Source: Abditibacterium sp.
GTDB lineage: Bacteria; Armatimonadota; Abditibacteriia; Abditibacteriales; Abditibacteriaceae
Assembly (NCBI GenBank): GCA_965199495.1
Contig: CBDASK010000003.1
Location: forward strand, 3,616,001-3,680,000
Direction: 5' to 3'
DNA length: 64,000 nucleotides
Shown here: positions 444 to 62,140 of the stretch, one piece after another
Numbering within the stretch: position 1 is the first letter of the stretch
How the letters are laid out: each line of letters begins with the position of its first letter
Notes under the pieces: generated by a model
The model's database searches: none
What the model was told of the DNA's origin: nothing
The model's input: only the letters and a program-made list of their open reading frames with translations
Made by a program: the position numbers and the translations under genes

Positions 444-1724
444 TCAAATTTGCTGCGCCGCCGCCAAAGCCGTTTCGTAAACCTCGCGCGCCGAAACGTT
501 GTTTTCTGACGCCCGTGCTTTGACATCTTCCCATTCGGGATGCGCGCGCCGCACATTGCCTTCTGCCCACGCGACGACTTTGACGCGAATGGGGCCAAAT
601 TTCGTCTCAATTGTCTCAATCGAACGCGGTAGCGCCGCGCGCTCGACAACAGATGCGCGCACGCCGATGGTCGTGGTATGACGTGTAATCGCGCTCAAAA
701 CCGCGTCGCGCGCGTCCGCCAAACACAGCGCGCACAATTGTTGCGCGGGCCGACCTTTTTTCATATGGATGGGAATTGTCCAAACATCGAGCGCGCCCGC
801 GTCGAATAATGCGGCGAACACGGCTTCCCATAATTGCGGGTTCATATCGTCAATATTGGTTTCAAGCAGCGACAAAGTCGTCCATTCCAAACCTTTTAAT
901 TTTTCTGTTGCGCTCAGTTCTCCGATAAATACGCGCAATAAATTGGGCTGCTCGCCCCACATTTCTTTGGTGCCCGCGCCCATGCCGATGGTTTCCATCT
1001 GCATCGCCGGAGCCGGGCCGTAATTTTGGCACAACGCGGCCAAAATGCCCGCGCCGGTTGGCGTCACGAGTTCGCCTACGATGTCGGTCGGCGTCCACGG
1101 CGCGCCTTTGAGAATTTCCAGCGTCGCCGGAGCGGGAATCGGCATCAATCCATGTGCGCATTTCACCGTTCCGCTCGACATCGGCAGCGCCGACGCGTAA
1201 ACCGCTTCGATGCCCAAATAATCCAGACACCAGGCCACGCCGACGATGTCGAGCAGCGAGTCTAAGCCGCCGATTTCGTGAAAATGCACTTCGTCGGGCG
1301 TCGAATGATGAATCTTCGCCTCGGCCCGCGCGACCTCGCCAAAAATCGCGAGGGCTTTGGCTTTCACGTTTGGGTTCAGCGAACTGCTTTCGATAATCTC
1401 GCGAATCTCGGTCATCGAACGCCCGTGATGATGTTGGTGCGAATGCTCGTCTTCCTCGTCGCCGTGGCTGTGATGCTCGCCGTGATGATGTTCGTGCGAA
1501 TGCGCCAGTTCGTCGGCGTCGCTGATGCCGCCTTCGGTGATGCTGACTTTGACGCCGTGAATGCCGCTGCGCATTACATCGTGGGCACGAATGTCCCAAT
1601 TTTCGACGGCGAGCGAAGCCAGATCGGTTTTGAGTTGGTCGAGCGGCGCGCCGCAATCGAGTAACGCGGCCAAAGCCATATCGCCCGCGATGCCGGTGAA
1701 ACAATCGAAATACGCGATTTTCAT
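444..1724 (-). CDS. larC: Nickel-pincer cofactor nickel insertase LarC
   Basis: MKIAYFDCFTGIAGDM, EVHFHEIG, ELVTPTGA, LETNIDDM, MKKGRP motifs; His-rich insert. Confidence 0.95.
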   Translation of the reverse strand: MKIAYFDCFTGIAGDMALAALLDCGAPLDQLKTDLASLAVENWDIRAHDVMRSGIHGVKVSITEGGISDADELAHSHEHHHGEHHSHGDEEDEHSHQHHHGRSMTEIREIIESSSLNPNVKAKALAIFGEVARAEAKIHHSTPDEVHFHEIGGLDSLLDIVGVAWCLDYLGIEAVYASALPMSSGTVKCAHGLMPIPAPATLEILKGAPWTPTDIVGELVTPTGAGILAALCQNYGPAPAMQMETIGMGAGTKEMWGEQPNLLRVFIGELSATEKLKGLEWTTLSLLETNIDDMNPQLWEAVFAALFDAGALDVWTIPIHMKKGRPAQQLCALCLADARDAVLSAITRHTTTIGVRASVVERAALPRSIETIETKFGPIRVKVVAWAEGNVRRAHPEWEDVKARASENNVSAREVYETALAAAQQI

Positions 1725-1736
1725 GATTTTATTTTA

Positions 1737-1830
1737 GCCGCGAAAAAGCACAAAAAATATAAAAGTTTGGAAGCGCGACCTAAACGCGCGACGCCTTCGA
1801 CTTTTTGTATCTTTTGTGCCTTTTCGTGGC
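1737..1830. repeat. Inverted repeat, 'CCAC(A/G)AAA..CACAAAA' family
   Basis: gccgcgaaaaagcacaaaaaatataaaagt / actttttgtatcttttgtgccttttcgtggc. Confidence 0.8.
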
Positions 1831-1838
1831 CAATAGAA

Positions 1839-2588
1839 TTACTTCCTGCCCCGCAACATCGAAGCCACGAACGCCGCCGCGCCAAAGCCGTTGTCTATAT
1901 TGACAACCGCCACTCCGCTCGCGCAGGTATTGAGCATACCGAGCAATGCAGCCACGCCGCCAAAGGCGGCGCCGTAGCCGACGCTGGTCGGCACCGCCAC
2001 AACCGGCACGCTGACCAAACCGGCGACGACCGAAGGTAACGCGCCTTCCATTCCGGCAGCGACAATTAAGGCGTCGCACTCGCGAATTTCGTCCATGCGA
2101 TTGAGCAACCGATGCAAACCCGCGACGCCGACATCGCTTAAACGCGTGACTTCAACGCCCATCGCTTGCAAACACAACGCGGCTTCATCGGCGACGGGCA
2201 AATCCGACGTGCCAGCGCACAAAACGCCCGCGCGGCCTTGAAGTTTGGGCGTTTTGCCATCCACGATGATTAAACGCGCCAATTCTTCATAGCGCGCGGC
2301 GGGCACGAGTTTTTTCGTCGCCTCGAACGCCTCCAAACTGGCGCGCGTGACCAAAACGATGTCGCCGCTTTGGCTGAGATTCTCAACGATTTGCGCGATT
2401 TGTTCGGGCGTTTTTCCGGCGCCAAACACGACTTCGGGAAAGCCCTGACGCAGCGCGCGGTGATGGTCAACAGTGGCGAATCCCAAATCTTGAAACGGCA
2501 AATCGCGCAGTTGAGTTATTGCGTCTTCGACGGGCAAATTTTGGTTCTGGACTTGTTCGAGCAATTGACGCAGTGAATCGGGAGACAT
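1839..2588 (-). CDS. larB: Nickel-pincer cofactor biosynthesis protein LarB (PurE-like)
   Basis: DHHRALRQGFPEVVFGAGKT, AGTSDLPVA, DVGVAGLHR, AGMEGALPSVV, VVNIDNGFGAA; start moved to ATG 2588 (MSPDSL). Confidence 0.95.
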   Translation of the reverse strand: MSPDSLRQLLEQVQNQNLPVEDAITQLRDLPFQDLGFATVDHHRALRQGFPEVVFGAGKTPEQIAQIVENLSQSGDIVLVTRASLEAFEATKKLVPAARYEELARLIIVDGKTPKLQGRAGVLCAGTSDLPVADEAALCLQAMGVEVTRLSDVGVAGLHRLLNRMDEIRECDALIVAAGMEGALPSVVAGLVSVPVVAVPTSVGYGAAFGGVAALLGMLNTCASGVAVVNIDNGFGAAAFVASMLRGRK

Positions 2589-2593
2589 GGGGA

Positions 2594-2623
2594 AAGGCTG
2601 AAGGATTAAGGCTGAAGGCTGAA
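2594..2623. repeat. Heptamer tandem repeat (AAGGCTG/AAGGATT)x4
   Basis: aaggctg aaggatt aaggctg aaggctg; same unit as at 16587. Confidence 0.7.
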
Positions 2624-2757
2624 AATGTCGGGGTGAAATTTTTGGCTGAACAACAAATTTTAGCAGTTGTGCCTTGCAGCGTCTCGCGTATTTGGGTAAT
2701 ATCTGTCGGGCCGCTTCGATTCTTCCTCGGAATTTGGCGCGGCCTCTTGATTCGATC

Positions 2758-3126
2758 ATGGGAACTTTTCTGCTCGTTTTGCAAATTATCACCGCCTTGG
2801 TGTTCATCGTCTTGATGGCGGTGCAGACCGACAAAGCCGAAGCTGGCGGCGTCATGGGTTTGGGCGGGCAGGGCGGTCGCGTGGGCGAAGAAGTGGATAT
2901 GCCGGTTGGTGCCGAACGTATTCTCAAGCCGCTTTCCAAGTGGACAGCGATTGGGTTTTTGTTTCTTTCGATTTTGGCCGCAATGAACGGTGAAATCGTG
3001 GCGACCAGCAAAGGCGCGCAATCTTTGCCGTTCTGGGTTTTGCTCGTCGGCGTGTTGCTTTACTTATTCATCATGCTCGTCGGGGATCGGATATGGAAAG
3101 GTTTTACCGGCGTTTTCGGCAGCTAA
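2758..3126 (+). CDS. secG: Preprotein translocase subunit SecG
   Basis: TM1 ending 'LMAVQ', Gly-rich loop, 'ERILKPLSKWTAIGF' before TM2; directly upstream of tRNA-Leu(GAG), the conserved secG-leuU arrangement. Confidence 0.8.
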   Translation: MGTFLLVLQIITALVFIVLMAVQTDKAEAGGVMGLGGQGGRVGEEVDMPVGAERILKPLSKWTAIGFLFLSILAAMNGEIVATSKGAQSLPFWVLLVGVLLYLFIMLVGDRIWKGFTGVFGS

Positions 3127-3158
3127 CTCGGAATAATTTGGGTAATTAAACAGTCCAC

Positions 3159-3241
3159 GTCGCAGTGGCGAAATGGCAGACGCGTCAGCTTGAGGGGCTG
3201 GTGCCCGCAAGGGCGTGGAGGTTCGAGTCCTCTCTGCGACA
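3159..3241 (+). tRNA. tRNA-Leu (anticodon GAG), long variable arm, CCA not encoded
   Basis: Acceptor GTCGCAG/CTGCGAC; D-loop TGGC; anticodon arm TCAGC-TTGAGGG-GCTGG; variable arm GCCCGCAAGGGC; T-loop GTTCGAGTC. Confidence 0.97.
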
Positions 3242-3247
3242 AACACG

Positions 3248-3290
3248 AAAAACTCCCGTTGACTTTTCAGTCAACGGGAGTTTTTTCTTT
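3248..3290 (+). terminator. Rho-independent terminator after secG-tRNA
   Basis: aaaaactcccgttgac-tttca-gtcaacgggagtttttt. Confidence 0.9.
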
Positions 3291-3326
3291 GCGCGCGGCA
3301 TCTGTTTTGAAGCGTCTGGCTTCACC

Positions 3327-4094
3327 ATGAGAAAAGTTTTAGTCGCTCTCGCCCTCGTCGGCGCCTCTTCCGTTCCGCTCGGCGTCTTCGTCGCCGTCAA
3401 CGCGCAAGGCGAAGCCAAAAGTCAACCTTCAACGCCCAAACTCGAACGCAAAACCGCGCAACCGTGGACGGGCAGTCCGTTGGAATTTGAATATGCCAAC
3501 CGCGACCAAACCCTGAAAATCCCGCAGGTTTTTCGCGCCCTAAAGATCGGCAAAGGCAGCCACGTCGCCGACGTTGGTGCGGGCGGTGGCTGGCTTTCGA
3601 CGCGATTGGCGCGTCAAGTTGGGCCAAAAGGCGTCGTTTATGCCGAAGAGATTTTGCCGCGCTATGTCGAATTTTTGCAACAACGCGCGCGCCGCGAAAA
3701 ATTACCGCAGATGAAAACTGTGCTGGGCACGACTTCCGACCCGAAACTGCCGCACAATTTGGACGCCGTGATGATTCTCAACGCCTATCACGAATTCGAT
3801 GAACCGCTCGAAATGCTGGGCAAAATCAAATCTTCGATGAAGCCGGGCGCGCGTCTGGGCTTCATCGAGCGCGACGATCTCGAACTGCGCGCGGAAGCCG
3901 AACTGGCCTATCGCCAAACCGGAAAGATCAAACGGCGCGTGACCGAGCGTGATGACGGCAATCCCATCACAGACGATCATCGTTTGGCGTTGCCAATCGT
4001 CGAACGTGAAGCCGCCGAAGTTGGCTTCAAAAAAGTGAGTTCGATGCAATTGGGCGAAGACAAATATCTGCTCGTCGTCGAAAAAGTGCGTTAG
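3327..4094 (+). CDS. Class I SAM-dependent methyltransferase with N-terminal signal peptide
   Basis: VADVGAGGG motif I, 'NAYHEFDEP'; MRKVLVALALVGASS..VNA|Q leader. Confidence 0.85.
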   Translation: MRKVLVALALVGASSVPLGVFVAVNAQGEAKSQPSTPKLERKTAQPWTGSPLEFEYANRDQTLKIPQVFRALKIGKGSHVADVGAGGGWLSTRLARQVGPKGVVYAEEILPRYVEFLQQRARREKLPQMKTVLGTTSDPKLPHNLDAVMILNAYHEFDEPLEMLGKIKSSMKPGARLGFIERDDLELRAEAELAYRQTGKIKRRVTERDDGNPITDDHRLALPIVEREAAEVGFKKVSSMQLGEDKYLLVVEKVR

Positions 4095-4150
4095 ACGAAT
4101 CCCTAATGTTAGCCACAGGAGTTATTGTGCGATGAAGCAACTGTAGCGTT

Positions 4151-4505
4151 TAGCGGGGCTAACGCCTCCTTCCAATCGAGCGAAGTTCCTCGCACGTCCG
4201 CCCGATTGGAAGAGGGCGTCAGCCCAAGGGCGAACGCACTACAACAGTTATAAATTTCCCTTCTGTCATTCTGAGCCGGGTGCCCCTTGGGCGTGAGGCA
4301 CGAACGAAGTCGAAGAATCCACGACTTTGGGCGAAGTGAAAGCGAAGTCAACGGGCAACCTATGAATTCTTCGACTTCATTCGTGCCTCACGCCCAAGGG
4401 GCACCCCGGTCAGAATGACAAATTTAGTTTTATCATCTGTTATGATACGTTGTCGAAAAGCTAATTACTGTTGTAGTGCGTTTGCCCTTGGCGTCAGCCC
4501 CGCTA
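4151..4505. repeat. Composite palindromic region: family-B palindrome (4155-4225) plus an outer inverted pair (4224-4248/4467-4491) enclosing a family-A element
   Basis: ggggctaacgcctccttccaatcg/cgattggaagagggcgtcagccc; ccaagggcgaacgcactacaacagt/actgttgtagtgcgtttgcccttgg. Confidence 0.8.
4264..4420. mobile_element. Family-A1 MITE/REPIN-like palindrome (TGTCATTCTGAG...CAGAATGACA)
   Basis: About 57-bp arms with cgaacgaagtcgaagaatcc core; spacer contains gcgaagtcaac, homologous to other copies. Confidence 0.85.
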
Positions 4506-4581
4506 TCAAAGCCACGAGCAAAGTCCGGTTTAGACAATCAAAGTGCTAAAGCCAAGTAGCGCCGAACAAATTCGAGCGCAC

Positions 4582-5835
4582 TCAAAAAGAGATGGCTGAA
4601 CCTTTTTCGCCGAAATGATTTTCCTCGGAAATCTTTGAGTTTTGTTTCGCGATCAAGGATTCGTTGAGCGCGCTTTGGATCGCCAGATTTTCGGCTCTGG
4701 CGATCCAAACCAAAAATAAAAGCGATAACACCATCGCCCCGGCCATCAAAGTGCGTGCGGCTAATCCGGGGAGCGATTGCTCGAAAAACCAGTTCGGCGG
4801 AAGAATCATCAGCGCGACGAAGGTGATTACAAGCCCTCGCGCGCAAACGCGTTGCGCGCTTGGAGCCGCGTTCAGCGCGATTTGGAGCAAAAGCAACATC
4901 GGAATAGCCAGTAACATATCGTCATAGATATTATGATACGTCCAGAGGCGCGCGACCAAGGCGGTGATGCTGAGCAGCAAAAGCCGGTCGAGATGCCGGT
5001 GCCGATACGTCCAATAGCCCAACCAGAGCCATATCACCAGTGAAAGCGGATTGCTCCATTGTTTGATGCCGAGGGCTTCCGCCCATGCGCGCAAATTGGC
5101 GTAGCCTTCGCTGAGATGCGCCCCATCACGATTGACCGTTTGCGCCCACAAAGTCACTTCGTGCGTGGCGTTGTGTTGAAACCACAGCGCAACTAACGTC
5201 AAAATCGCATAGCCAACGATCACGCCCAATCCCAGGCGAAGCCGCATGGGTTTCCACAAAACCAACCACAGAAATGGCGCCGCGACGCTGGGTTTGGCGA
5301 GAGCGAAAAGCAAGAGAGCGCCCGCCAAAACTTCGCGTTGCCAGCCGAGTTTTTGGTCGGGCGGCGGATGAAGCAAAAACATCGCGCCCACGATGGCGGC
5401 CATCGAAAGTGGCACCAACTGGCCCAGCCAGACCGCCGCCGAAGTCGCCGTCAGCGAGAGAAAAACCATCGCCGCGAACCAGCGCGCCGAATGCGAGGCA
5501 ATCGCCTGATGACGCGCGCACAGCGTCGCCATCCAGCCCAGAGTTGCCGCGTAAAGTAACGTCCACAACCAACTCGCGTGCGCCAACGAAAGCCAGCCCA
5601 AGAGCGGCCACAGCAAAACATAACTGGCGGGCGGGTAGGTCGAACTCTGATACGCGTAAAGTTCTTGCCCGCTAAACCAACGCTCGACCGCGACCGCACG
5701 CGAGCCTAAATCGAGTGCCGAACCTGCCCAAAGGTGCTGAAACACAAAGGCCAGCCGCGTGGCTGCAATGTAGGCCAACAACAGCGTGAGCGCATAAAAA
5801 GTCAGGCGTCGGGCGGACAGAGGAAATGCGGGCAA
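4582..5835 (-). CDS. GT-C fold membrane glycosyltransferase (GT87/DUF2029-like)
   Basis: 'STYPPASYVLLWPL', 'LGQL', 'LAKPS', 'YHNIYD'; about 10 TM helices. Confidence 0.75.
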   Translation of the reverse strand: MPAFPLSARRLTFYALTLLLAYIAATRLAFVFQHLWAGSALDLGSRAVAVERWFSGQELYAYQSSTYPPASYVLLWPLLGWLSLAHASWLWTLLYAATLGWMATLCARHQAIASHSARWFAAMVFLSLTATSAAVWLGQLVPLSMAAIVGAMFLLHPPPDQKLGWQREVLAGALLLFALAKPSVAAPFLWLVLWKPMRLRLGLGVIVGYAILTLVALWFQHNATHEVTLWAQTVNRDGAHLSEGYANLRAWAEALGIKQWSNPLSLVIWLWLGYWTYRHRHLDRLLLLSITALVARLWTYHNIYDDMLLAIPMLLLLQIALNAAPSAQRVCARGLVITFVALMILPPNWFFEQSLPGLAARTLMAGAMVLSLLFLVWIARAENLAIQSALNESLIAKQNSKISEENHFGEKGSAISF

Positions 5836-5856
5836 GAGAAATCAGGGAAATTGAGC

Positions 5857-6708
5857 TTATTGCGGGCTGGCAATCGGCGGCGGCGGGAAGTTGGGACGTG
5901 CCATGTCGCCTTCGCTGCGGCCTACGCCAAACAGGTTGCGATAAGTCAGGGCAATCGCGATTTGCGTTAGCGGATACGTCACCAAAAGACCCAGACCACA
6001 CGCGCAGAGGCCCGCAAGGTTAATCAGGCCCAACACGAAAAAGAGCAGGAATAGCGCGCCCAGATGCGGTTTGCAGGCTTCCCACGAACGCTTGATCGAA
6101 TCAATCGCATCGGCTTTTTGGTCAACGAGAAGCGGTGTATACATCGAGAACCCCAGCGCCATAATAACGCCGGGAATGATACACGCGATAAACCCCAGCC
6201 CCGTCGCGAGACTAACCAAAATGCCCGCGACGAGAATCGGCGCGATGATGTCGGTGATGTCGAAGAGTTTGGCGATTTCGGCTTGGCCGCTACGCACTTG
6301 GTGAATCGCCATTTTCATCAGGCCCGCATTGGCCAACAGACCAATAGCGAAACCCGCGATAGAAATGATGATCGAAAGCAGCGTCACGACAGCCGATGGC
6401 TCCCGCCCACCCGCCGCGCTAATGACAGTACTTATGCCGTTTAAGGCGCCGGTAGCGGCGCCGTAAATCAGCATGGCGACGATCCACATACCGATTTGCG
6501 GTTGCAACAGTTGCCACGCTTGCCCGATAACATCGGTGTTGACGGTTGCCGTTGCGGGCGCGGGCACGCCCGTCGGCGGCAACGGCGGCGAGTTTGGCGG
6601 CTGGTAAGGATTGCTCGGCGGCGGTGGCTGCATTGAGGGTGGCGTCGGCTCTTTCGAGAGATTGAGCGGATCGTTGGGAGTGGGATTGTTGGGATCGTTG
6701 TTTTGCAT
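5857..6708 (-). CDS. Proline-rich integral membrane protein
   Basis: Pro-rich N-tail, 5-6 TM helices, 'AIDSIKRSW', 'CGLGLLVTYP..AYR' pattern. Confidence 0.8.
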   Translation of the reverse strand: MQNNDPNNPTPNDPLNLSKEPTPPSMQPPPPSNPYQPPNSPPLPPTGVPAPATATVNTDVIGQAWQLLQPQIGMWIVAMLIYGAATGALNGISTVISAAGGREPSAVVTLLSIIISIAGFAIGLLANAGLMKMAIHQVRSGQAEIAKLFDITDIIAPILVAGILVSLATGLGFIACIIPGVIMALGFSMYTPLLVDQKADAIDSIKRSWEACKPHLGALFLLFFVLGLINLAGLCACGLGLLVTYPLTQIAIALTYRNLFGVGRSEGDMARPNFPPPPIASPQ

Positions 6709-6782
6709 GAGAGAAAAAGTTGAGGCTCAGAAACTGCGTTCTTCAACGTCTATTTCTGAGCCTCGGTCAAAACGGCTTGAAG

Positions 6783-7025
6783 TTAGTGAACGGGCACGCC
6801 GCCGCCCGCGCCAATGCCCAGCGCAAAGCGTCCGATGATGCCCAGCACCAACAGCACTGTGCCAATAATAGCGATGATGCGCGCAATGTTCGCGTTGCTC
6901 AGGTCGTCGGCGGGCAAAGTTCCAGTTGTAATGGCCTGATTGCTCAGATACCACGTTACGGGTGACAGAATTTGGCAACAGATCAAGCCGAAGATGCTCA
7001 TTCCCAACAAAGTTTTTCCATTCAT
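6783..7025 (-). CDS. Small two-TM membrane protein (DUF4190-like)
   Basis: 'GLICCQILSPV..ARIIAIIG'; GGAG SD about 10 nt upstream. Confidence 0.7.
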   Translation of the reverse strand: MNGKTLLGMSIFGLICCQILSPVTWYLSNQAITTGTLPADDLSNANIARIIAIIGTVLLVLGIIGRFALGIGAGGGVPVH

Positions 7026-7177
7026 AATTGATTAGCTCCCCAAGGTGGATGCTGCTCGCAAATTACTCAAATGTAAGATGCGAAACAGTCTGTCACCAAT
7101 TTTACCACGCATTTCTTGTCAAGTGTTAAATTTGCCTCCGAAATTATTAAATTATCTGAGAATCTTTTCAATCCCCC

Positions 7178-7206
7178 TTGACTTGAACCCAAATCCCCTT
7201 TAGAAT
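7178..7206 (+). promoter_or_regulatory. Sigma70-type promoter of groESL
   Basis: TTGACT (7178-7183) -17 bp- TAGAAT (7201-7206). Confidence 0.8.
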
Positions 7207-7220
7207 AATCCCTTGGCAAA

Positions 7221-7247
7221 TTAGCACTCTCGCTCCGAGAGTGCCAG
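7221..7247 (+). promoter_or_regulatory. CIRCE operator (HrcA binding site)
   Basis: TTAGCACTC-N9-GAGTGCCAG versus consensus TTAGCACTC-N9-GAGTGCTAA, upstream of groES. Confidence 0.93.
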
Positions 7248-7306
7248 AAAATGTCCGCTCTGTTTCATCCGAAGCGGCGCGAGAATCTCAAGGAGAAACT
7301 TAAAAT

Positions 7307-7600
7307 ATGGCAACTATTAAACCGTTGGCCGACAAAGTGTTGGTCAAACCCAGCCAGTCCGGCGAAATGACCAAAGGCGGCATCGCCTTGCCCGAAAGCG
7401 CCAAAGAGCGCCCGCAGGAAGGCACCGTTATCAGCGTCGGCCCAGGCCGCACGCTCGACTCGGGCGAAAAAACGTCGGTTTCAGTGAAAGAGGGCGATGT
7501 CGTCATCTACTCGAAATACGGCGGCACCGAAATCAAAGAAGACGGCGTCGAGTATCTGATTCTCGATGAATCGAGCTTGCTCGCCGTTAAAGAAGGTTAG
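7307..7600 (+). CDS. groES: Co-chaperonin GroES
   Basis: [24 protein letters not shown]. Confidence 0.98.
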
Positions 7601-7609
7601 GAACACCGA

Positions 7610-9376
<1,767 letters not shown>

Positions 9377-9392
9377 AGTTAGGCCGCAAGGT

Positions 9393-9433
9393 AAAAGCGC
9401 CCCGCATTCCTTATGGATGCGGGGCGCTTTTTT
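9393..9433. terminator. Bidirectional intrinsic terminator after groEL
   Basis: aaaagcgccccgcat..atgcggggcgctttttt. Confidence 0.9.
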
Positions 9434-9437
9434 GTGT

Positions 9438-10034: not shown

Positions 10035-10043
10035 GTAATCTCG

Positions 10044-10436: not shown

Positions 10437-10437
10437 T

Positions 10438-49746: not shown

Positions 49747-49748
49747 TG

Positions 49749-52755: not shown

Positions 52756-52760
52756 TTCTC

Positions 52761-52843
52761 GTAGAGGCGCAGATTTATCGCGTCTCAAACAGAAGGTTGG
52801 AATTAACCATTCTGTTTGAGACGCGATAAATCTGCGCCTCTAC
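52761..52843. repeat. GTAG-type REP doublet with perfect 34-bp arms
   Basis: gtagaggcgcagatttatcgcgtctcaaacagaa / ttctgtttgagacgcgataaatctgcgcctctac. Confidence 0.9.
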
Positions 52844-52853
52844 TCAACGAACA

Positions 52854-53954: not shown

Positions 53955-55274
53955 ATTCGCGTTTTCTTGGAGAATCTGAACGACGCCGCTGGCGTGGCTG
54001 TTGCCAGCCACGTCGAGCGGCGTTTGTCCTTTGTTATTGCGCGCCGTCGGGTCGGCGCCGCGTCGTAATAATTTGCGCACGATGTCGCCGACATCTTGCA
54101 AATGAGCCACGCGATGAAGCGGCGTATCGCCGTTTGCGTCGCGCGATTTAACGTTGGCGCCGTTTTCCAGTAGCCAATTGACGACGAGCCAATTTCTGTC
54201 GTCAATAGCCTCAGCTAACGGCGTCTGTTCTTTAACGGCTTTATCAAACGGCGTCTGTTTCTGAAAATAATGACCGTTGATATTGGCGCCATAATCGCGC
54301 AAAATCCACAGGGTTTGCAGCGTTAAGTTCGGTGTGTTTCCATGCACATAATTTTTATTAATATAAGCGACGGCATTGCGTCCGCTTTTGTCGCGCGCGT
54401 TGACATCGGCGCCCTGACGCAGTAACCATGAAATTGTCACCGGTTCGCGTTGCTCGGCGGCGGCCATCAGTAGCGTCGTGCCGTCTTTGGCAACTTGGTC
54501 GAGATGGGCGCCCGCTTTCATCAATTTTGGAGCAATTATAAGAACCCAATCGTTTTGAAAGTGCGGGCAATAACTATTGACCGCGTAAAACAAAACGTTG
54601 CGGCCTTTGTCGTCAAGGCGCGTGGCATCGGCGCCCTGTTGTAACAATAATTCGACCGCCGATTGTTTCCCATTTTCTGCCGCCAACATCAGCCACGTCG
54701 TGCCGCCAGTTCGATTATCGTTCCAACTATCGGCGATTTGAGCGGGTGTAAATCGCGCGCCTGCCGCGATGAGTTTCGCCGCATTATGATTGGAGATAAC
54801 CGCGTTGGTCAGCGCATCCGCGCCCTGTGGCGCTTTCAAATCGGCGCCCGCTTCGATATACCAATTCATCGCGTCGTCTTTGTCGTCGCCATACCAACTG
54901 GCGGTTGTGGCAATTGTTAGCGCCGTTTCGCCTTTGTTGTCGCGCAAATTCACGTCGGCGCCTCGGTCGAGCAGCAACCGAATAATAGCCGAATTTTGCA
55001 TCGGATTGCTGCGCTCGACGTAAACGCTGCTCGCCGCCATCAGCGCCGTCGTCCCATCGGCATTGCGCGCGTTGACATCGGTGCCCGCGTCCAACAAGGC
55101 GGCGACGTTTTTCGGATCGTTTTCCCAAATGCTGGCTTGACCGATTAAAGCATCGGCTCCTATATCGTCAGTTTTAAGTGAAGCGGGCGGCGTCACGGGT
55201 TGCGCCCGCAACGGCGCCGCTAACGACAATGCAATGCTTAATGCAAAAACTCTCTGAAAAAAGCGTTGGTTCAT
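53949..55274 (-). CDS. Secreted ankyrin-repeat protein
   Basis: Signal peptide LRA|Q; multiple 'LL..GADVN.RD..G.TAL' repeats. Confidence 0.92.
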   Translation of the reverse strand: MNQRFFQRVFALSIALSLAAPLRAQPVTPPASLKTDDIGADALIGQASIWENDPKNVAALLDAGTDVNARNADGTTALMAASSVYVERSNPMQNSAIIRLLLDRGADVNLRDNKGETALTIATTASWYGDDKDDAMNWYIEAGADLKAPQGADALTNAVISNHNAAKLIAAGARFTPAQIADSWNDNRTGGTTWLMLAAENGKQSAVELLLQQGADATRLDDKGRNVLFYAVNSYCPHFQNDWVLIIAPKLMKAGAHLDQVAKDGTTLLMAAAEQREPVTISWLLRQGADVNARDKSGRNAVAYINKNYVHGNTPNLTLQTLWILRDYGANINGHYFQKQTPFDKAVKEQTPLAEAIDDRNWLVVNWLLENGANVKSRDANGDTPLHRVAHLQDVGDIVRKLLRRGADPTARNNKGQTPLDVAGNSHASGVVQILQENANL

Positions 55275-55343
55275 TGAAGTTATATTATCAATAAATGCGA
55301 GTGTGAGCAAGTCAGAGCGCGATTTGAGTAAAATCAAAAGTCA

Positions 55344-56144
55344 ATGATTCCCGTCACCATTATCGGCGCCGCCGGGCGCATGGGCCGCGAAACCGTGAAA
55401 GCCGTTTGCGCCGATTCAGAAATTGAACTCGTCGGCGCCGTCGGGCGCTCGCTCGCCGGAAATGATGCCGGAGAAGTCGCTGGCATCAGCCACGTCGGCG
55501 TGGCGATTTCGGATGACATCGAAACCGCGCTCAAGAATGCGCGCGTCGCGGTTGATTTATCGGTTCCCGCCGTCGTCAAAGCGAACATCGCGGCGATACT
55601 CGCGGCGGGCGTGGCTGGTGTTGTCGGCACGACCGGTTTGACCGAATCCGATTTAAGCGAATTAGACGAAGCGGCGAAAAAAGCGAATGTGCCGCTTTTA
55701 ATCGCGCCCAACTTTGCCATCGGCGCGATTTTGATGATGCGATTTGCCGCCGATGCCGCGCGGTATTTCGACAGCGCCGAAATTATCGAGCGCCATCACG
55801 ATAAAAAATTGGACGCGCCATCGGGCACGGCTTTTAAAACCGCGCTCGCCATGCGAGAAGCGCGCGGCGCAGATTTCGCGCGCATCGGCGGCGACAGCGC
55901 CGACGAGAATTCGTCCGCGATTGGCGCGCGCGGTGGCGCGATTGGCGGCGTTTCCATTCATTCCGTGCGTTTGCCGGGTTATCTGGCGCATCAGGAAGTC
56001 GTGTTTGGCATGGCCGGACAAACCTTAAAAATTCAGCACGACGCAATTTCGCGCGAATGTTATATGCCGGGTGTGTTGCTGGCGATTAAAAAAGTCTGGG
56101 ATTTGCCGGTCGGTTTGACGTTTGGCTTGGAGGCGATTTTGTAA
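55344..56144 (+). CDS. dapB: 4-hydroxy-tetrahydrodipicolinate reductase
   Basis: GAAGRMG, VVGTTG, APNFAIG, E.HHDKKLDAPSGTA, HSVRLPG..AHQEV. Confidence 0.97.
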   Translation: MIPVTIIGAAGRMGRETVKAVCADSEIELVGAVGRSLAGNDAGEVAGISHVGVAISDDIETALKNARVAVDLSVPAVVKANIAAILAAGVAGVVGTTGLTESDLSELDEAAKKANVPLLIAPNFAIGAILMMRFAADAARYFDSAEIIERHHDKKLDAPSGTAFKTALAMREARGADFARIGGDSADENSSAIGARGGAIGGVSIHSVRLPGYLAHQEVVFGMAGQTLKIQHDAISRECYMPGVLLAIKKVWDLPVGLTFGLEAIL

Positions 56145-56641
56145 TGCGAATCAACTCGGTCGCAATCTTGATTCGGCGCTTCAATGAAGCGGGCGTGCGT
56201 TACCTTATCGCGGGCGGTTTCGCCGTTGTGGCGCATGGTTACTCGCGCTTCACGGTGGATTTGGATTTCGTGTTGGACTTGGAGCCGGAGAACGCCGCCA
56301 AAGCATTGGAGATTTTGAAAGACGAGGGCTACGCGCCGACGATTCCCGTGCCCATTGAACAGTTCGCCGATGCGGAACTGCGCAAAGATTGGGCGGAAAA
56401 TCGCAATATGGTCGCGTTTCCCTTGCAAAGCGAGAAGCACCGCGAAACCAGAGTTGACGTTTTCGTGCGAGAACCTTTCGATTTCGAGCGCGCTCATGCC
56501 GAGCGGTTTCGCGGCGACATCGTGCCCGAACTCACTGCCGATTTCGTCTCGTTTGAGGATTTGATGAAGCTGAAAACCGAAGCCAGTCGTCCCAAGGATT
56601 TGCAGGACATTTATTATTTGCGACAGATCAAATTGCCATGA
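56144..56641 (+). CDS. Pol-beta-superfamily nucleotidyltransferase (DUF6036-like, putative TA component)
   Basis: 'YLIAGGFAVVAHGYSRFTVDLDF', 'VDVF', C-terminal 'L..LK..A.RPKD..DI'; TAATG coupling to dapB. Confidence 0.85.
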   Translation: MRINSVAILIRRFNEAGVRYLIAGGFAVVAHGYSRFTVDLDFVLDLEPENAAKALEILKDEGYAPTIPVPIEQFADAELRKDWAENRNMVAFPLQSEKHRETRVDVFVREPFDFERAHAERFRGDIVPELTADFVSFEDLMKLKTEASRPKDLQDIYYLRQIKLP

Positions 56642-56841
56642 GTAACATCCCCGCCGACTTTCCCGAAATCGATTGGACGGTGCCCGCCGATCCCTACGAA
56701 ATCGCGCAACTCCGCGATGTTGCAAAATGGCCGTTGTGGGAAAAATTGCAGTGGCTTGAATCGGCGCAAGAAATCGCGGATTCGCTGGAAGCATCGCGTT
56801 TGAAGCAGGCCCGTTTGGCGCGCGAGTCACGGCAAAAGTGA
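56638..56841 (+). CDS. Small partner protein of the nucleotidyltransferase (copy 1)
   Basis: ATGA overlap; 67 aa, 'EIAQLR..A.WP.WEKL.WLE.AQ'; paralogue at 58664. Confidence 0.8.
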   Translation: MSNIPADFPEIDWTVPADPYEIAQLRDVAKWPLWEKLQWLESAQEIADSLEASRLKQARLARESRQK

Positions 56842-56876
56842 GTTTTATAGACATGCGCTCGCGCCAACCTTGGTAA

Positions 56877-56990
56877 ATTTTGCGCGCGGGGGTTTCGACG
56901 ACCCAGCGCCCACAGCGCGGTGCCGAAGTCGTGGCGGCGTGCGGCCAACTGCGCGTTTTGCAAGAAAAACCGGCGTTTGGTATCGAGTGA
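56877..56990 (+). pseudogene. 3' remnant of rlmN (radical-SAM rRNA methyltransferase)
   Basis: Unannotated frame reads ILRAGVSTTQRPQRGAEVVAACGQLRVLQEKPAFGIE*, matching the RlmN C-terminal signature R...G.DI.AACGQL; preceded by an in-frame TAA. Confidence 0.7.
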
Positions 56991-57067
56991 ATTCCGCTTT
57001 TGACCCTACGGTTGGCGGGGATCTATCAGCCGCAACTTTTTCAAACCCACAAACTCAATACAATTCT

Positions 57068-58516
57068 ATGAAACCGACTTTTCGCGGCGTTTGGCTGATT
57101 CCGGCGAGTTTTATTCTGGTTTTCGCGGCCCAAGCACAGCCGCAAGATCCGCCGCCGACGGCGGCGGATGAGAGAACTTCGCTGACGCCGCCGATGTCTT
57201 TGGCGGATCTGGAAACATTCATCGGCGGACGCACTTTGCTTTCGGTCGATTTGAAAAATGTGCCGCTCGCCGACGTTGCCAGCGCGCTCGGTCAAGCGGC
57301 GGGTTGGAAAATCACGTCGCCGACCGTGGCTCAGAACCATTACTCATTGCAAGCGCAAAATGCGCCGTTTTGGGAGGCGCTTCTCGACCATTCGCGCCTG
57401 ATTCGCCGAGGCCGCGCCGCCAAAGACAAATCCACCGTTGACCAAACGCAGCTCAATGACTTCAATTTGAGCAAAGACGGCGAGAATTGGCTTTTGCGCG
57501 AATCTGGCGAAATGCCCGCTGGTTACGTCTCGAAAAGTTGGCCGTTTTTGCTGGTGGGAACGCAACTCACGCGCACTCAAAAGGCGTTCTTGGGCGACGA
57601 CGAGATTCAAATTCCACCCAAATCGTTCGATTTCATGCGCTTTCCTCTGACGCCCGCGCCCCAATTTGGCAAGCCCAAAACCGAAGCCGAAACGCCCGAA
57701 ATGCCGCAGGAAAAACGTTGGATGGATGGTTTGGATTTCCAAATCAGCGCCTTCAACGACCCCAAAATCGAGGCGCGTGAACTCACGGTGGAAGTTCTCG
57801 AAGCGACTGACGAACTTGGCAACGATTTGCGAGTGCCGCTCATCGCTCAAAACCGCAATCGCAATTTATATGGCGGCAATTATTATGGCGGCAGCACGCC
57901 AATCACGCTCGCGCTGCAATCGAAGCCGAAAATGGGCAAAAAGCTCGTCAAATTGCGCGGGAATTTGCGATTCCTCATCACCACAAAGCTCCAGCATTGG
58001 GAAACGACGGCTCTCCAAACGCCCGTCAACGGCAACATTTGGCAAGACGGCGGCGAGTTTCAGACCCAATTTTCCGGTCTGAAAAAGGACGCTGTGGGCC
58101 GTGGCGATTGGAGACTGACTTTAACGGCGCAAAGTCGCGGTGACCATTTGCGCCGTTTGTGGAACACGCGCGATTTTGGCACTTTTCTTTTTAACGGTTG
58201 GAAAATGATTTTGACCGACGACAAAGGCCAAAATTTCCGAATTTCCCCTGCTGGCTTACGTGCTTCTTTAACTATGGGCGCTGAGCAACAAAATGGGCCA
58301 CTTTCGCCCGACCGTTCGCCGCTCCCGCCCGATATTTCCGACTGGAAATATGAGGGCGAGGCGAATTTCTATTTCGCAGCGCCACAAAATTCCGGCTCCG
58401 ACGCGCCCGAAATCAAGATGGGGCAGCCGATCAAACTCAGCATTGATTATCCCGCCGAGCAGCGCGAAATCGTGGTGCCGTTTGAATTCGATAATCTGCC
58501 GTTGCCGCCTTCGTGA
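57068..58516 (+). CDS. Secreted hypothetical protein
   Basis: MKPTFRG..AAQA|Q signal; 'V.L..VPLADV...L' N-domain; C-terminal 'VPFEF.NLPLP'. Confidence 0.8.
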   Translation: MKPTFRGVWLIPASFILVFAAQAQPQDPPPTAADERTSLTPPMSLADLETFIGGRTLLSVDLKNVPLADVASALGQAAGWKITSPTVAQNHYSLQAQNAPFWEALLDHSRLIRRGRAAKDKSTVDQTQLNDFNLSKDGENWLLRESGEMPAGYVSKSWPFLLVGTQLTRTQKAFLGDDEIQIPPKSFDFMRFPLTPAPQFGKPKTEAETPEMPQEKRWMDGLDFQISAFNDPKIEARELTVEVLEATDELGNDLRVPLIAQNRNRNLYGGNYYGGSTPITLALQSKPKMGKKLVKLRGNLRFLITTKLQHWETTALQTPVNGNIWQDGGEFQTQFSGLKKDAVGRGDWRLTLTAQSRGDHLRRLWNTRDFGTFLFNGWKMILTDDKGQNFRISPAGLRASLTMGAEQQNGPLSPDRSPLPPDISDWKYEGEANFYFAAPQNSGSDAPEIKMGQPIKLSIDYPAEQREIVVPFEFDNLPLPPS

Positions 58517-58577
58517 GCGCATCGCGCAAACTGTGGTTTGGATGAAAAATTTTAGTTTTGCACGATTCCAATTTGAA

Positions 58578-58667
58578 TTCGAGGATTTGATGAAGTTCAA
58601 AGCCGAGGCGGGGCGTCCCAAAGATTTGCAGGATATTTATTATCTGCGACAGATCAAATTGCCATGA
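58578..58667 (+). pseudogene. 3' fragment of a second nucleotidyltransferase copy
   Basis: FEDLMKFKAEAGRPKDLQDIYYLRQIKLP* versus FEDLMKLKTEASRPKDLQDIYYLRQIKLP*; possible short ORF from ATG 58542. Confidence 0.85.
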
Positions 58668-58867
58668 ACCCAATTCCCGCCGACTTCCCCGATATTGATT
58701 GGACGGTGCCCGCCGATCCGCACGAAATCGCGCAGTTGCGCTCTTTCGCGCAGTGGCCGCAGTGGGAGAAGTTGGCGTGGCTCGAATCCGCGCAAATTAT
58801 CGCGCAATCTCTGGAAAAATCGCGCTTGCAACAGGCGCGCGAACAGGACGGCGCGTCCGAAAAATAA
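58664..58867 (+). CDS. Small partner protein (copy 2)
   Basis: 47/67 aa identical to 56638-56841; same ATGA overlap. Confidence 0.8.
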   Translation: MNPIPADFPDIDWTVPADPHEIAQLRSFAQWPQWEKLAWLESAQIIAQSLEKSRLQQAREQDGASEK

Positions 58868-58881
58868 ACCCGAAAACTCTG

Positions 58882-59637
58882 ATGAAAACGCGAATTATCC
58901 TTGCTTTATGTTGCGGCGCCGCTTTGAGTGCGTCCTCTTTAACGTTTGTTGCTCAAGCCAAAGAGGACGATAACCAGCGCAGTTGGCGCGGCGTGGCTAC
59001 GCTCAAGACGCTTGCCAAAAAAGACAAACGGCATGACATTTCGGTGATTTATCCGATTTTTAGCGGTCATCGCGCTGTGGCTCAGGTTGCGGGCCTGAAA
59101 CTAAAACGCGATGCGATTGATAGTTACAACGCGTTCGAGGAAGAATCGCGCGAACCCGATCCCGATTGGAAAAATGACACGCCCGAATATGAACTCGACA
59201 ACGTACCGACGCTGGTGACGAATCTGCCGCACTTTATTTCGGTTTCGGTGATGGACTGGCAATACACCGGTGGCGCGCACGGATTTGGCGGCACGAGCGG
59301 TTATAATTTCGGCATTCCTGCGGGCGCGAGCCGCCCGCGCCAACTGAAATTAGCCGATTTTTTCACCGATGGCGCGGCGTCATCGAAACGCATCAACGAT
59401 TTATTGATGGCGAAATTGCGCGCCACCAAAGACACCGAACAAGAAGCGAGTTTTGTGCTTGATGGCAGCGTGAAATGGGTGGATGTAAATTCGCGAGAAA
59501 ATTTCGTCGCGCACAAAGACGGCTTGCACTGGTTCTTCGCGCCCTACGAAATGGGGCCGTATGCGGCGGGCGAATTTGAAGTGAAACTCAGCCCGCGCGA
59601 GTTAGGGCCGAAGTTTCGCGCGTCGCTGATAAAGTAA
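58882..59637 (+). CDS. Secreted RsiV/PdaC-like (DUF4163-DUF3298) protein
   Basis: 'YTGGAHG...YNF', 'LKLADFF', 'F.PYEMGPYAAG'; signal peptide. Confidence 0.85.
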   Translation: MKTRIILALCCGAALSASSLTFVAQAKEDDNQRSWRGVATLKTLAKKDKRHDISVIYPIFSGHRAVAQVAGLKLKRDAIDSYNAFEEESREPDPDWKNDTPEYELDNVPTLVTNLPHFISVSVMDWQYTGGAHGFGGTSGYNFGIPAGASRPRQLKLADFFTDGAASSKRINDLLMAKLRATKDTEQEASFVLDGSVKWVDVNSRENFVAHKDGLHWFFAPYEMGPYAAGEFEVKLSPRELGPKFRASLIK

Positions 59638-59650
59638 AATTAAAGGTATC

Positions 59651-60997
59651 ATGGCCAAATCTAAAATTCGCGAAATCGCGCTGATTTCGCTGCCGATTGT
59701 TTTTCTCGGTGGCTTCAGTTGGTGGGCGAACGGGCGCCAACAGCAGCGCGCCGCGCGCGAAAACGGGCCGTATCGCACGCGCTTGGTTTCGATGGAAGAT
59801 GTGCCGCTCACGCCGTTCGAGCGTTGGCAGGGATTTGACAGTAAAGTGCGCATCGTGGCCACCGACGAGGGCAAACCGGATTTGCCCGCGAGCTTCAGAT
59901 GGGGAGGCCGCCGGGAATTGGCCAGTGACATATTTTTGAGCGGTAAAAACGGCGCGAAATTGCCAGTTGCTTCCAATGGTCAGGGCGATATGAGACCCAG
60001 TGCGCGAAATCCAGGGGCGCTGATGCGCATTCTCGATTACGACCGAACGCGCACCGAATCTGAAAATTTAGAACTGACTTTTTTGGCTGATACCAAAGCT
60101 GTCGCTGGCAAGGCGAAGTTGCAAGGCGAAATTCGTTTTGAAATTCCCGTAGGCTTTTGCACAGCGCGTCCCCTGCAAATTGAACGCGATTTGCGCGCCC
60201 AAAATACGCTGATAAATCGCACTGCGCCCCGATTTATTTCGGCGCAAGTCGCGCATTTTTCGCCGCGCGAGACCGCCATCGATCCAACGGGAGACAACGG
60301 CGATACTTTCGTGGAGGCCGCTTTCGATTGCTCGGCCTTGAAAGGGGCGATGCCCAACGCGCACTTCGCTAATGAGATTCTCGAAGATGAGTTCGGTAAA
60401 GAGGTCGAGGAACTCGACGTCAATAGGACAGCCGCAAATCCCGCTGGGCAAATCACTTTTAACGACCGCGTTAAAACTTTCTCGATTCCGGCCAGTCGCG
60501 GGCAAATTACCTTTAAAACCTGGTTTTCCTATTGCGATTCGTGGCCAACTCTGGTTTCGGTTGTCGTGCGCCTGCGCCCGCATACAGCCACGCCTCGTAA
60601 GTTGATGTTGCAAAGCGTTCGTCTGGCGGGTTCAAACGTCGAAGCGCGCGTGCGTTATACGGGCAATTTGCCGCTTGGAACTGAGCAAAGTGCTGTGCGG
60701 CAGGACGTCTCAACGTTTATTGGCGACCGTCCCGCGCCGCGTGCTGCCGGAACTGACCGTTTACTCAGCAATTGGTCGCAACATCTCGAATTCGCGGGCG
60801 GCAAAAAGCAATGGTCGGGACAATATGTCGGCGATGCGCGCGCGCAGTGCAAGCCCGATAATACCTGCGTCGTGACGTATCCCATTCCCGCGATGAAAAG
60901 TTGGCTCCCCGGCCAACGCGCGCGGTTTCGCGCGCAAATCGGTATCGAAGACGACGGCTTTCTCGACATTGATTTGCCGATTGTCAAAGCGAAATAA
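59651..60997 (+). CDS. Membrane-anchored hypothetical protein
   Basis: 448-codon ORF with one N-terminal TM helix. Confidence 0.7.
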   Translation: MAKSKIREIALISLPIVFLGGFSWWANGRQQQRAARENGPYRTRLVSMEDVPLTPFERWQGFDSKVRIVATDEGKPDLPASFRWGGRRELASDIFLSGKNGAKLPVASNGQGDMRPSARNPGALMRILDYDRTRTESENLELTFLADTKAVAGKAKLQGEIRFEIPVGFCTARPLQIERDLRAQNTLINRTAPRFISAQVAHFSPRETAIDPTGDNGDTFVEAAFDCSALKGAMPNAHFANEILEDEFGKEVEELDVNRTAANPAGQITFNDRVKTFSIPASRGQITFKTWFSYCDSWPTLVSVVVRLRPHTATPRKLMLQSVRLAGSNVEARVRYTGNLPLGTEQSAVRQDVSTFIGDRPAPRAAGTDRLLSNWSQHLEFAGGKKQWSGQYVGDARAQCKPDNTCVVTYPIPAMKSWLPGQRARFRAQIGIEDDGFLDIDLPIVKAK

Positions 60998-61057
60998 GCG
61001 CGGGTTGGGCAAAAATGGGTAATCTATAAAGGGAAATTTTTCCCGGAAATTATTTGT

Positions 61058-62140
61058 ATGAGCAAGCTCCAAGTCGCCGTTATCGGCGCGACCGGCATCG
61101 CTGGTCAACAGTTTTTAGCCGCTTTGCCCGGCCATCCGCAGTTTGAAGTCGTCGCTTTGGCCGCATCCAAACGCAGCGCGGGCAAAACTTATCTCGACGC
61201 GATTCGCAACGAGTCCGGCATGATCGGTTGGTGGTGCGACGAACCGTTGCATCCCAATTATGCCGCGATGAAGGTGCAGGACGCCGCCGAGTTTGACGCG
61301 CAAAGCGTTGACGTGGTTTTCACCGCCGTCGAAAGCGACGCCGCCAAAACCATCGAGCCGATGTATGCAGCCACGACGCCCGTCATCTCGACGGCGAGCG
61401 CGTTTCGCTACTTCGACGATACGCCGATAATTATTCCCGGCGTCAACTCCGATCACGCGAAGTTGCTCGACCGCCAGCGTAAAGAACGCGGTTGGAAAGG
61501 TTTCGTGACGCCGATTCCCAACTGTACCGTCACCGGTTTGGCCGTGACGCTGCGCCCGATACTGGACGCGTTCGGCATCGAAAACGTGATGCTGACTTCG
61601 ATGCAAGCGATGAGCGGCGCCGGGCGCAACGGCGGCGTTCTGGGCATGGACGCTTTGGATAATATCATTCCCTATATCGCGGGCGAAGAAGAAAAAGTGC
61701 AACGCGAAGCGCAGAAGTTGCTGGGCACTTTGAACGGTGGGGAAATCGAAAACGCGCAATTTGGCGTTTCGGCGACTTGCACGCGCGCGGCTGTCATTGA
61801 CGGGCACACCGAAGCGGTCTTCGTGGCGACGGAGAAGCCATGCGACGTGGCTGCTGTGGCCGAGGCGATGCGCGCGTTCGATGGCGGACTGCGCGGTTTG
61901 TATTCGGCGCCCGAACATATTATTTATGTTCACGACGATCCGTTTCGCCCACAGGTGCGGCGCGACCGCGATATGGGCAACGGCATGACGACTGTTGTCG
62001 GACGTTTGCGCGAAGAGAAAATTTTGGGCACGCACGGCATCAAATATGTGTTGGTTTCGCACAACACCAAAATGGGCGCGGCCAAAGGCGCGATTTTGCT
62101 GGGCGAACTGTTGGTGCGCGAGGGAATTATCGGGAATTAG
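61058..62140 (+). CDS. asd: Aspartate-semialdehyde dehydrogenase (archaeal/fungal-like subtype)
   Basis: GATG.AGQQF, AASKRSAGK.Y, PNC, MQAMSGAG, NIIPYI.GEEEK, DGHT, SHNT..GAA. Confidence 0.95.
   Translation: MSKLQVAVIGATGIAGQQFLAALPGHPQFEVVALAASKRSAGKTYLDAIRNESGMIGWWCDEPLHPNYAAMKVQDAAEFDAQSVDVVFTAVESDAAKTIEPMYAATTPVISTASAFRYFDDTPIIIPGVNSDHAKLLDRQRKERGWKGFVTPIPNCTVTGLAVTLRPILDAFGIENVMLTSMQAMSGAGRNGGVLGMDALDNIIPYIAGEEEKVQREAQKLLGTLNGGEIENAQFGVSATCTRAAVIDGHTEAVFVATEKPCDVAAVAEAMRAFDGGLRGLYSAPEHIIYVHDDPFRPQVRRDRDMGNGMTTVVGRLREEKILGTHGIKYVLVSHNTKMGAAKGAILLGELLVREGIIGN

Follow-up and report, generated by a model that had tools for sequence, protein, structure and literature searches.

A stretch of 64,000 nucleotides from the chromosome of Abditibacterium sp. 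(assembly GCA_965199495.1, contig CBDASK010000003.1, positions 3,616,001 to 3,680,000; hereafter the window) carries, on both strands and mostly inside genes, many copies of a short asymmetric DNA word built around AGCCACG. We found that this word is heavily over-represented along the whole chromosome, is confined to one clade of the family Abditibacteriaceae, and is spaced such that copies on the same strand, but not copies on opposite strands, exclude one another over several hundred base pairs. On balance, and with modest confidence, we interpret the word as a clade-specific self tag that is linked to natural transformation and whose use includes a step acting on individual DNA strands. The host genome studied (G000) comprises 4.81 Mb in three contigs, of which C3 is the 4.72-Mb chromosome, and the window corresponds to C3:3616001-3680000. 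GroEL finds its best matches in Armatimonadota, and among the homologues of a pilus protein one is from Abditibacterium sp. Contigs of sequencing run X1 agree with the window at every position, although this run may itself be the source of the window. Gene calls were made with our own script and are not a curated annotation.

The original prediction, which proposed a nonamer motif with an 8-mer core, was right about the existence of the motif but not about its extent, because the word continues farther in the 3′ direction. A k-mer profile of G000 yields (W)(G)(C)AGCCACG[G>C>T]CG, without AT-rich flanking tracts; the 4,533 genomic AGCCACG 7-mers are followed by C at position 9 in 77% of cases and by G at position 10 in 69%. 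The most frequent 10-mer in the genome is CGCCGTGGCT. Under a maximal-order Markov model, one of the checks suggested with the prediction, AGCCAC is the top hexamer (6,436 observed versus 3,111 expected). On C3, the core AGCCACGNCG is present in 2,913 copies, divided almost evenly between the plus (1,469) and minus (1,444) strands, with 2,665 copies in coding sequences (CDS; 91%), 234 between genes, and 14 straddling a boundary.

Synonymous shuffling of the coding sequences, which the original prediction had named as the test that could reduce the motif to codon-pair bias, left the motif standing. In 12 shuffles, 136 coding core sites and 93 coding nonamers were expected, compared with 2,665 and 1,612 observed. 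This excess rules out codon or codon-pair bias as the cause, and over-representation beyond codons or protein sequence is a property that the word shares with the uptake signal sequences (USS) and DNA uptake sequences (DUS) of other bacteria. In six shuffles, enrichment rose from 1.0-fold for AGCCAC followed by A or T, through 5.6-fold for AGCCACG and 19.7-fold for AGCCACGNCG, to 84-fold for the core with a WGC prefix. Intergenic core sites are enriched 50-fold over base composition (234 versus 4.7 expected), which indicates that the signal sits on the DNA. Two frames prevail at coding sites, antisense xVA (1,267) and sense xATx (858), and the proteome bears the imprint: the tripeptide AAT occurs 1,406 times and its reverse TAA 766 times, with VAA at 1,823 and its reverse AAV at 838. 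A proteome imprint of like kind is described for USS and DUS in the cited part of PMC2817400.

Along the chromosome, the word lacks polarity. The origin was placed where three landmarks cluster on C3: the skew minimum at 1.92 Mb, dnaA at 2.03 Mb, and, at 2.16 Mb, parB together with three parS-like sites. Because the skew is weak, the replichores are approximate. Core sites number 1,464 on leading and 1,449 on lagging strands, and three choices of origin and terminus gave no bias (p 0.77-0.91). Therefore, replichore polarity of the classical Chi/KOPS kind, the second outcome named beforehand as speaking against an uptake role, is excluded. C3 is nearly devoid of GC skew and of gene-strand bias, although dnaA and parB/parS lie together. 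Core density is level along C3 except at islands. The decile of most atypical codon usage holds 0.39 sites per kb versus 0.60-0.81, the largest gaps between sites (8-24 kb) are mostly of lower GC, and the two small contigs are at chance level (1 core site in the 24.7 kb of C1 and 2 in the 64.6 kb of C2). A scarcity of sites in acquired DNA, also put forward as a check, was thus found.

The spacing of the sites is evener than random, with a deficit at 30-600 bp, and block-wise strand variance falls below random (0.34-0.56). This order is specific to each strand. Mean core spacing is 3.2 kb per strand, the fraction of per-strand gaps shorter than 500 bp is 0.04 versus 0.14, and adjacent sites share a strand in just 38% of cases. 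Below 600 bp, same-strand pairs occur at approximately 0.1-0.45 of expectation and opposite-strand pairs at approximately 1, whereas three control words show no effect. At 50-800 bp, C3 contains 218 same-strand and 645 opposite-strand pairs, and the fitted same-strand exclusion range is 863 ± 70 bp. Exclusion persists between sites in different genes (132 versus 261) and between variants of the word with different bases at N. A generic avoidance of close direct repeats was ruled out, given that 10-mer direct pairs outnumber inverted ones (28,297 versus 8,051 in 1 Mb). When exclusion was used as an assay for the word, it was mostly lost upon a single change in AGCCAC (ratios mostly 0.7-1.4, some of them from small counts) and was retained for G7C and for several changes within CG. 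We also looked for a direction of action in the asymmetry of weak versus strong sites and of decayed sites, and found none; weak sites lie equally 5′ and 3′ of strong ones (328 versus 332). The word-bearing relative G011 repeats the exclusion at 25-600 bp (same-strand pairs, 8 versus 26 expected; opposite-strand pairs, 26 versus 28).

In a toy model, a reader that acts on one strand generates exclusion between same-strand sites only, whereas a reader of duplex DNA generates it in both orientations. The strand-specific spacing itself implies that a simple duplex receptor blind to orientation does not account for everything. A literature search that covered few subscription papers and no supplements returned no published account of same-orientation exclusion, and no description of the AGCCACG word or of such words in Abditibacteriaceae.

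An established uptake sequence shows a parallel. No USS-rich genome was present among the 301 genomes searched for a control, and the control was drawn from metagenome stretches that contain paired USS cores (131 in all), of which 49 passed limits on length and density and 36 were non-redundant (626 kb, 39% GC). With close inverted pairs removed, the distance range of 50-300 bp contains 5 USS pairs in the same orientation and 26 in opposite orientations (permutation p=0.002), and 80 control 7-mers in the same loci never had a same-strand share below 0.37. The effect is absent by 300-600 bp (25 versus 28 pairs).

The word is restricted to a single clade. Among 41 genomes, its 12-mer form is found in 1,350 copies in G000, 1,047 in G011, and 431 in G004, and in at most 36 copies in each of the other 38. 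These three, out of 27 family genomes, are the only ones with such a density, and they form a clade on an RpoB tree (support 100/100; 97% identity, with others at 80-82%; 12 rows, G005 being left out as partial). The word is absent from five Armatimonadota genomes drawn from a GroEL search. Orthologous sites are retained in G011 in 101 of 151 cases, versus 33% for control 9-base patterns. There is a weak sign that sites arise by multi-base jumps, because 13 of 47 sites (p=0.09, G011) and 27 of 71 sites (p=0.03, G004) differ from their orthologues by at least three mismatches; compensatory turnover of lost sites was not seen (4 versus 3 and 7 versus 6). In G004, a GTAG-type repetitive extragenic palindromic (REP) element includes the core (109 copies in 400 kb, G004:C3:440001-840000, mostly inverted pairs). 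Coding sites are sparser within 2 kb of these word-bearing REPs (22 versus 55 expected), and no such thinning surrounds the word-free REP of G000, which suggests that REP copies stand in for coding copies.

Seven further family genomes carry other words at approximately one per kb. The palindrome RAGTACTY is present in 2,695-4,371 copies in G014, G018, G020, G022, G024, and G047, and in 0-117 copies in the rest of the 27; in G020 and G022 its spacing is even and some of its copies lie in coding sequence, with GAGTACTC in these two genomes and AAGTACTT in G014. G017 alone carries the word AGTACGGTCGA, whose 2,981 very evenly spaced copies often form intergenic hairpins flanked by A tracts. Among the remaining 17 family genomes, 12 were sampled (35-159 kb each; G001, G005, G008, G019, and G021 were left out) and showed no comparable word, with G013 and G015 ambiguous. 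DUS dialects differ among the Neisseriaceae likewise, according to the cited part of PMC3630211.

G000 has a complete set of pilus and competence genes. ComEC, ComEA, DprA, PilB/PilT/PilC/PilD, N-methyl pilins, and secretins are all present. A feature particular to the word-bearing clade is a tandem pair of 1,300-aa PilX-like tip proteins (C3:872853-880963), which ends a pilus operon in all three word-positive genomes; each of ten other genus genomes has at most one strong match. The tip proteins share 54-58% identity between copies and between species despite the 97% identity of RpoB. They have no Pfam match. In a predicted model of residues 1-1049 (pLDDT 72.8, pTM 0.43), the N-terminus alone matches a known fold, that of a pilin (Z 5.4-6.4). 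Foldseek (TM about 0.08) and profile searches gave no whole-fold match, atlas matches remained below 0.9, a VIA comparison returned small-domain matches only, and no match to the ComZ fold was found. A tip pilin of Thermus binds DNA, as described in the cited part of PMC6561018.

Avoided restriction-like sites supply a further signal. Many palindromes are nearly absent from G000 (CTAG at 0.04 and GGWCC at 0.03), as they are from word-negative relatives. Avoided sites in coding, non-island DNA are rarer near the word, rising from 0.79 within 150 bp to 1.38 beyond 1.2 kb (p=0.0001), and CCWGG follows a gradient around the word (p=0.002). A control word has no gradient for such sites and a small one for GATC. 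The gradient may reflect more frequent replacement of word-near DNA by incoming DNA. Palindrome avoidance extends to the whole genus and is extreme: of the roughly 45-60 6-mers that could be tested per genome, 13-23 stay under 0.2 of their expected frequency in five genomes out of six, whereas in G006 this holds for just 2 of 52.

We suggest that fragments bearing the word are preferentially taken up, or preferentially carried through to recombination, and that this preference would let the word spread by drive until about one copy is present per 1-kb piece. The benefit would be counted per strand, with each copy serving only its own strand or direction of entry, such that another copy close by would bring no further gain on the same strand but would do so on the opposite strand. 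The strand-level step would most likely act at or after the passage of one strand inward through ComEC, and the exclusion range would then correspond to an effective fragment length of roughly 0.9 kb. As leads to the reader of the word, we note the tandem pilin-fold tip protein and a Dna2-like enzyme described below.

Several observations weigh against this interpretation. Core density is higher in CDS (0.68 per kb) than between genes (0.30 per kb), unlike that of USS and DUS, and only 23 of the 76 close inverted pairs on the chromosome are intergenic, so that the enrichment of inverted terminator pairs typical of those sequences is not seen. Competence genes are equally present in relatives that lack the word (ComEC in 13 of 13 and ComEA in 12 of 13 genus genomes), and no clade-specific feature of ComEA was found by eye. 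A scan of 4 of the 13 prepilin-like proteins gave no ComP-type match; of the genes that the original prediction proposed to search for, ComEA, ComEC, and pilins were located, but among the proteins scanned or compared neither a ComP-type protein nor a word-matching orphan methyltransferase. Conservation in orthologues, likewise proposed, is seen in G011 but not in G004, whose sites are retained at no higher rate than control patterns (34 of 159 versus 23%). G004, in which a REP supplies many copies, also shows no clear exclusion (400 kb, 100-600 bp; same-strand pairs, 14 versus 8 expected; opposite-strand pairs, 17 versus 8). The 36 metagenome loci behind the USS control have only a presumed host, of the Pasteurellaceae type. 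For DUS, no exclusion was seen in 23 of 83 prophage stretches (30 versus 33), a comparison of low power, and the cited part of PMC1939737 reports that uptake in H. influenzae does not depend on orientation.

Nevertheless, the word behaves in the genome much like an uptake sequence. This reading, offered in the original prediction as one of two, is favored by the density of the word, its presence on both strands without polarity, its frame bias, its scarcity in mobile DNA, its regular spacing, its inverted pairs, and its confinement to one clade, along with the competence genes; it fares badly in that the same competence genes accompany word-negative relatives, the spacing is strand-specific, and the terminator pairs are few. 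Like the USS of Pasteurellaceae (core AAGTGCGGT; cited parts of PMC7811141, PMC2817400, and PMC1939737), the word is non-palindromic, has about 0.6 copies per kb with the strands equal, lies mostly in CDS with a frame bias and doubled tripeptides, combines a strong core with graded flanks, and is evenly spaced and scarce in acquired DNA. To these likenesses our control adds same-orientation exclusion, with a range of about 0.9 kb for this word versus 0.3 kb for the USS. Unlike the USS, the word belongs to a different phylum, has an unrelated sequence without AT-rich flanking tracts, and is denser in CDS. With the DUS of Neisseriaceae (cited parts of PMC3630211, PMC2397512, and PMC12061091), it shares membership in a family with clade-specific words, inverted pairs, and some sites that are several bases off their orthologues; a single-strand preference for DUS is cited in PMC12061091. 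It differs in the lack of a ComP-type match in the scanned pilins and the few terminator pairs, and the words of Abditibacteriaceae include palindromes and share no single core (AGCCACG versus AGTAC). The terminator-pair feature apart, the word has the genomic signature of an uptake sequence, and we regard it only as a candidate member of the USS and DUS.

The word might instead be a Chi-like stop or recombination signal in the processing of double-strand breaks, possibly read on single-stranded DNA by a Dna2-like enzyme, which we consider unlikely. Chi sequences of RecBCD and AddAB are asymmetric as well, act according to orientation, and are linked to recombination; if every broken end needs a nearby site in the correct orientation, each strand would be tiled separately. 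The clade also lacks the AddAB/AdnAB-like pair of its genus. An AddA-like helicase is a strong match in all 10 word-negative genus genomes, whereas the three word-positive genomes have weak UvrD matches only, and a search of G000 with the genus AddA and AddB, with the RecC family not searched separately, gave no full match. A 1,421-aa Dna2-like protein with PD-(D/E)XK and SF1B domains (C3:4111365-4115630, minus strand) is present in all three word-positive and in none of the 10 word-negative genus genomes. Its best PDB matches are DNA2 (E 7e-13), and in G000 it and a 299-aa island open reading frame (ORF) account for the PF12705 matches. It has 22 relatives at 64-100% identity before a drop to about 43%; 381 homologues were found among 8,000 candidates scored. 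Moreover, the genus-type AddA is missing from each of the 10 family genomes that have an iterated word of any kind, and each unwinding event of a bacterial DNA2-like enzyme covers about 900 bp (cited part of PMC7430649). However, the loss of AddAB and gain of the Dna2-like protein, like the tandem tip pair, are single events on one branch, and many genes share such a pattern because of one evolutionary event. The Dna2-like gene fails as a general marker of iterated words, being absent from the six RAGTACTY genomes, while in G016 the protein is present but the 159 kb sampled contain no word; seven family genomes lack AddA yet show no clear word or were unsampled. Known Chi sequences are enriched only few-fold, far below this word, which in addition shows no leading-strand skew, no 5′/3′ asymmetry of weak around strong sites, and no accompanying AddAB-like pair. 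Sequence specificity was not seen for the bacterial DNA2-like enzyme Bad in the cited part of PMC7430649.

A one-strand methylation mark that guides mismatch-repair strand choice or self recognition in transformation, in the manner of the highly iterated palindrome HIP1, appears improbable. Such a mark on an asymmetric site would produce symmetric, same-strand-only spacing, MutS and MutL-like genes are present as judged by motif, and methylated HIP1 raises transformation according to the cited part of bioRxiv 2024.09.10.611283. The word resembles the HIP1 of cyanobacteria (cited parts of PMC5861425, PMC13756078, and bioRxiv 2024.09.10.611283) in being hyper-abundant, conserved, and located in CDS, and HIP1 is transformation-linked; the RAGTACTY of six relatives amounts to a HIP-like palindrome outside cyanobacteria. 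Unlike HIP1, the word is asymmetric and limited to three species, and no methyltransferase that tracks it was found among those compared (the D12 class was not searched, and N6_Mtase matches were not comparable across genomes). An orphan methyltransferase linked to aspS (C3:3446463-3447708) was rejected as a candidate, since it is split over two frames in G000 and is present in word-negative G009. It is intact in G011 and G004, and the split in G000 may be an assembly error. A second enzyme adjacent to mutS is not beside mutS in G020, and its partner gene presumably resembles a restriction enzyme. Typical methyltransferase sites are also unlike a graded preference over 10-13 bases.

We give equally little credence to a binding site for a chromosome-handling protein, for example a primase or a nucleoid or segregation factor, that would depend on sites at regular intervals along each strand. 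The mean spacing per strand is near Okazaki length, and with a very weak GC skew and no k-mers polarised by replichore on C3, fixed replichores are themselves uncertain. However, dnaA, parB/parS, and the skew minimum coincide, no choice of origin and terminus reveals a bias, strand variance between blocks is lower than random, density is flat outside islands, and the word is wholly absent from close relatives. That the word is a by-product of REP elements and their Y1 transposases (RAYT), a decayed REP core, is hardly credible, for although the GTAG-type REP of G004 includes the core and Y1_Tnp genes occur in G000, G004, and G011, the coding sites (91% of those in G000) are in-frame substitutions without hairpins, the word is enriched at none of 20 Y1_Tnp loci examined, G017 lacks a Y1_Tnp match despite its approximately 3,000 hairpin-type words, and coding sites thin near word-bearing REPs but not near the word-free REP.

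The family may possess one self-recognition system with interchangeable words read strand by strand, a wider view that we hold only tentatively and would sooner doubt than accept. Its words would be the asymmetric AGCCACG of one clade, the palindromic RAGTACTY of two genera, and the hairpin-paired AGTACGGTCGA of one species, and strand-by-strand reading would make palindromes words that serve both strands at once. A single mechanism would then take either of two forms, HIP1-type or USS/DUS-type repeats, with the strand-level step also acting on the USS of Pasteurellaceae. In the literature covered, uptake words are established only for Pasteurellaceae and Neisseriaceae, and what HIP1 does is under debate. 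With several independent words in a third family, and close relatives that have none, the reader could be sought through gains and losses that occurred naturally. Exclusion confined to the same strand provides a cheap test, on complete genomes, of whether readers see duplex or one strand; its range estimates the length of DNA served per site, and the fact that the USS shows it too suggests that a step in this classic system has been overlooked.

Within the window, all 29 nonamers listed in the original prediction were found in place, compared with 0.78 expected and a largest count of 4 in 100 dinucleotide shuffles, and 24 of them have A or T immediately 5′, as had been noticed. Copies of the word on the plus strand lie within 1948..61378 and those on the minus strand within 1460..61854. 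The 17 plus-strand nonamers GCAGCCACG are at 1948, 3556, 9323, 14740, 19487, 21590, 25061, 26961, 31189, 33896, 39289, 43748, 43763, 45555, 47134, 48386, and 61367, and the 12 on the minus strand are at 5758, 8554, 11732, 16236, 18902, 21901, 26159, 31212, 35503, 41439, 45995, and 61846. Sites that match the octamer only number 10 on the plus strand (10109, 12209, 35748, 41807, 49545, 52454, 54005, 54690, 55487, and 60585) and 7 on the minus strand (1463, 7990, 29621, 40572, 43807, 53993, and 55610). The 45 octamer sites listed earlier are genuine, but their total is 46 (2.05 expected), the octamer and core site at 54690..54700 (plus strand) having been overlooked. Three minus-strand copies of AGCCACGNCG lack the 5′ C (33256, 41876, and 58989). 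Contrary to the claim that every site lies in CDS, 46 of these 49 core or octamer sites are within called CDS. An inverted pair of full words (31189 plus, 31212 minus; 31186..31223) is outside called CDS, and an inverted octamer pair (53990..54015) lies in an ankyrin-repeat ORF. At 43748..43814, two same-strand copies 15 bp apart are accompanied by one opposite copy, a rare exception in that 43748/43763 is the sole same-strand pair closer than 30 bp genome-wide, versus 27 expected.

The genes said to contain sites were located among the called genes and do contain them. The core gene groEL (7745..9376, plus strand) has three (7990 minus, 8554 minus, and 9323 plus), pepF (20797..22608, minus strand) has two (21590 plus and 21901 minus), tsaD (34700..35713, plus strand) has one (35503 minus), and asd (61058..62140, plus strand) has two (61367 plus and 61846 minus). 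Three REP/REPIN-like families, mostly inverted pairs, have about 157, 123, and 51 copies on C3, and elements of this kind lie in the window at 4264-4320, 9900-10010, 15530-15600, 30342-30500, 32951-33046, and 40138-40237. The long ORF at 30330-31286 is doubtful and overlaps one of them. Elsewhere on C3, at about 2.70-2.75 Mb, a one-directional cluster of about 130 repeat copies is probably a CRISPR array.

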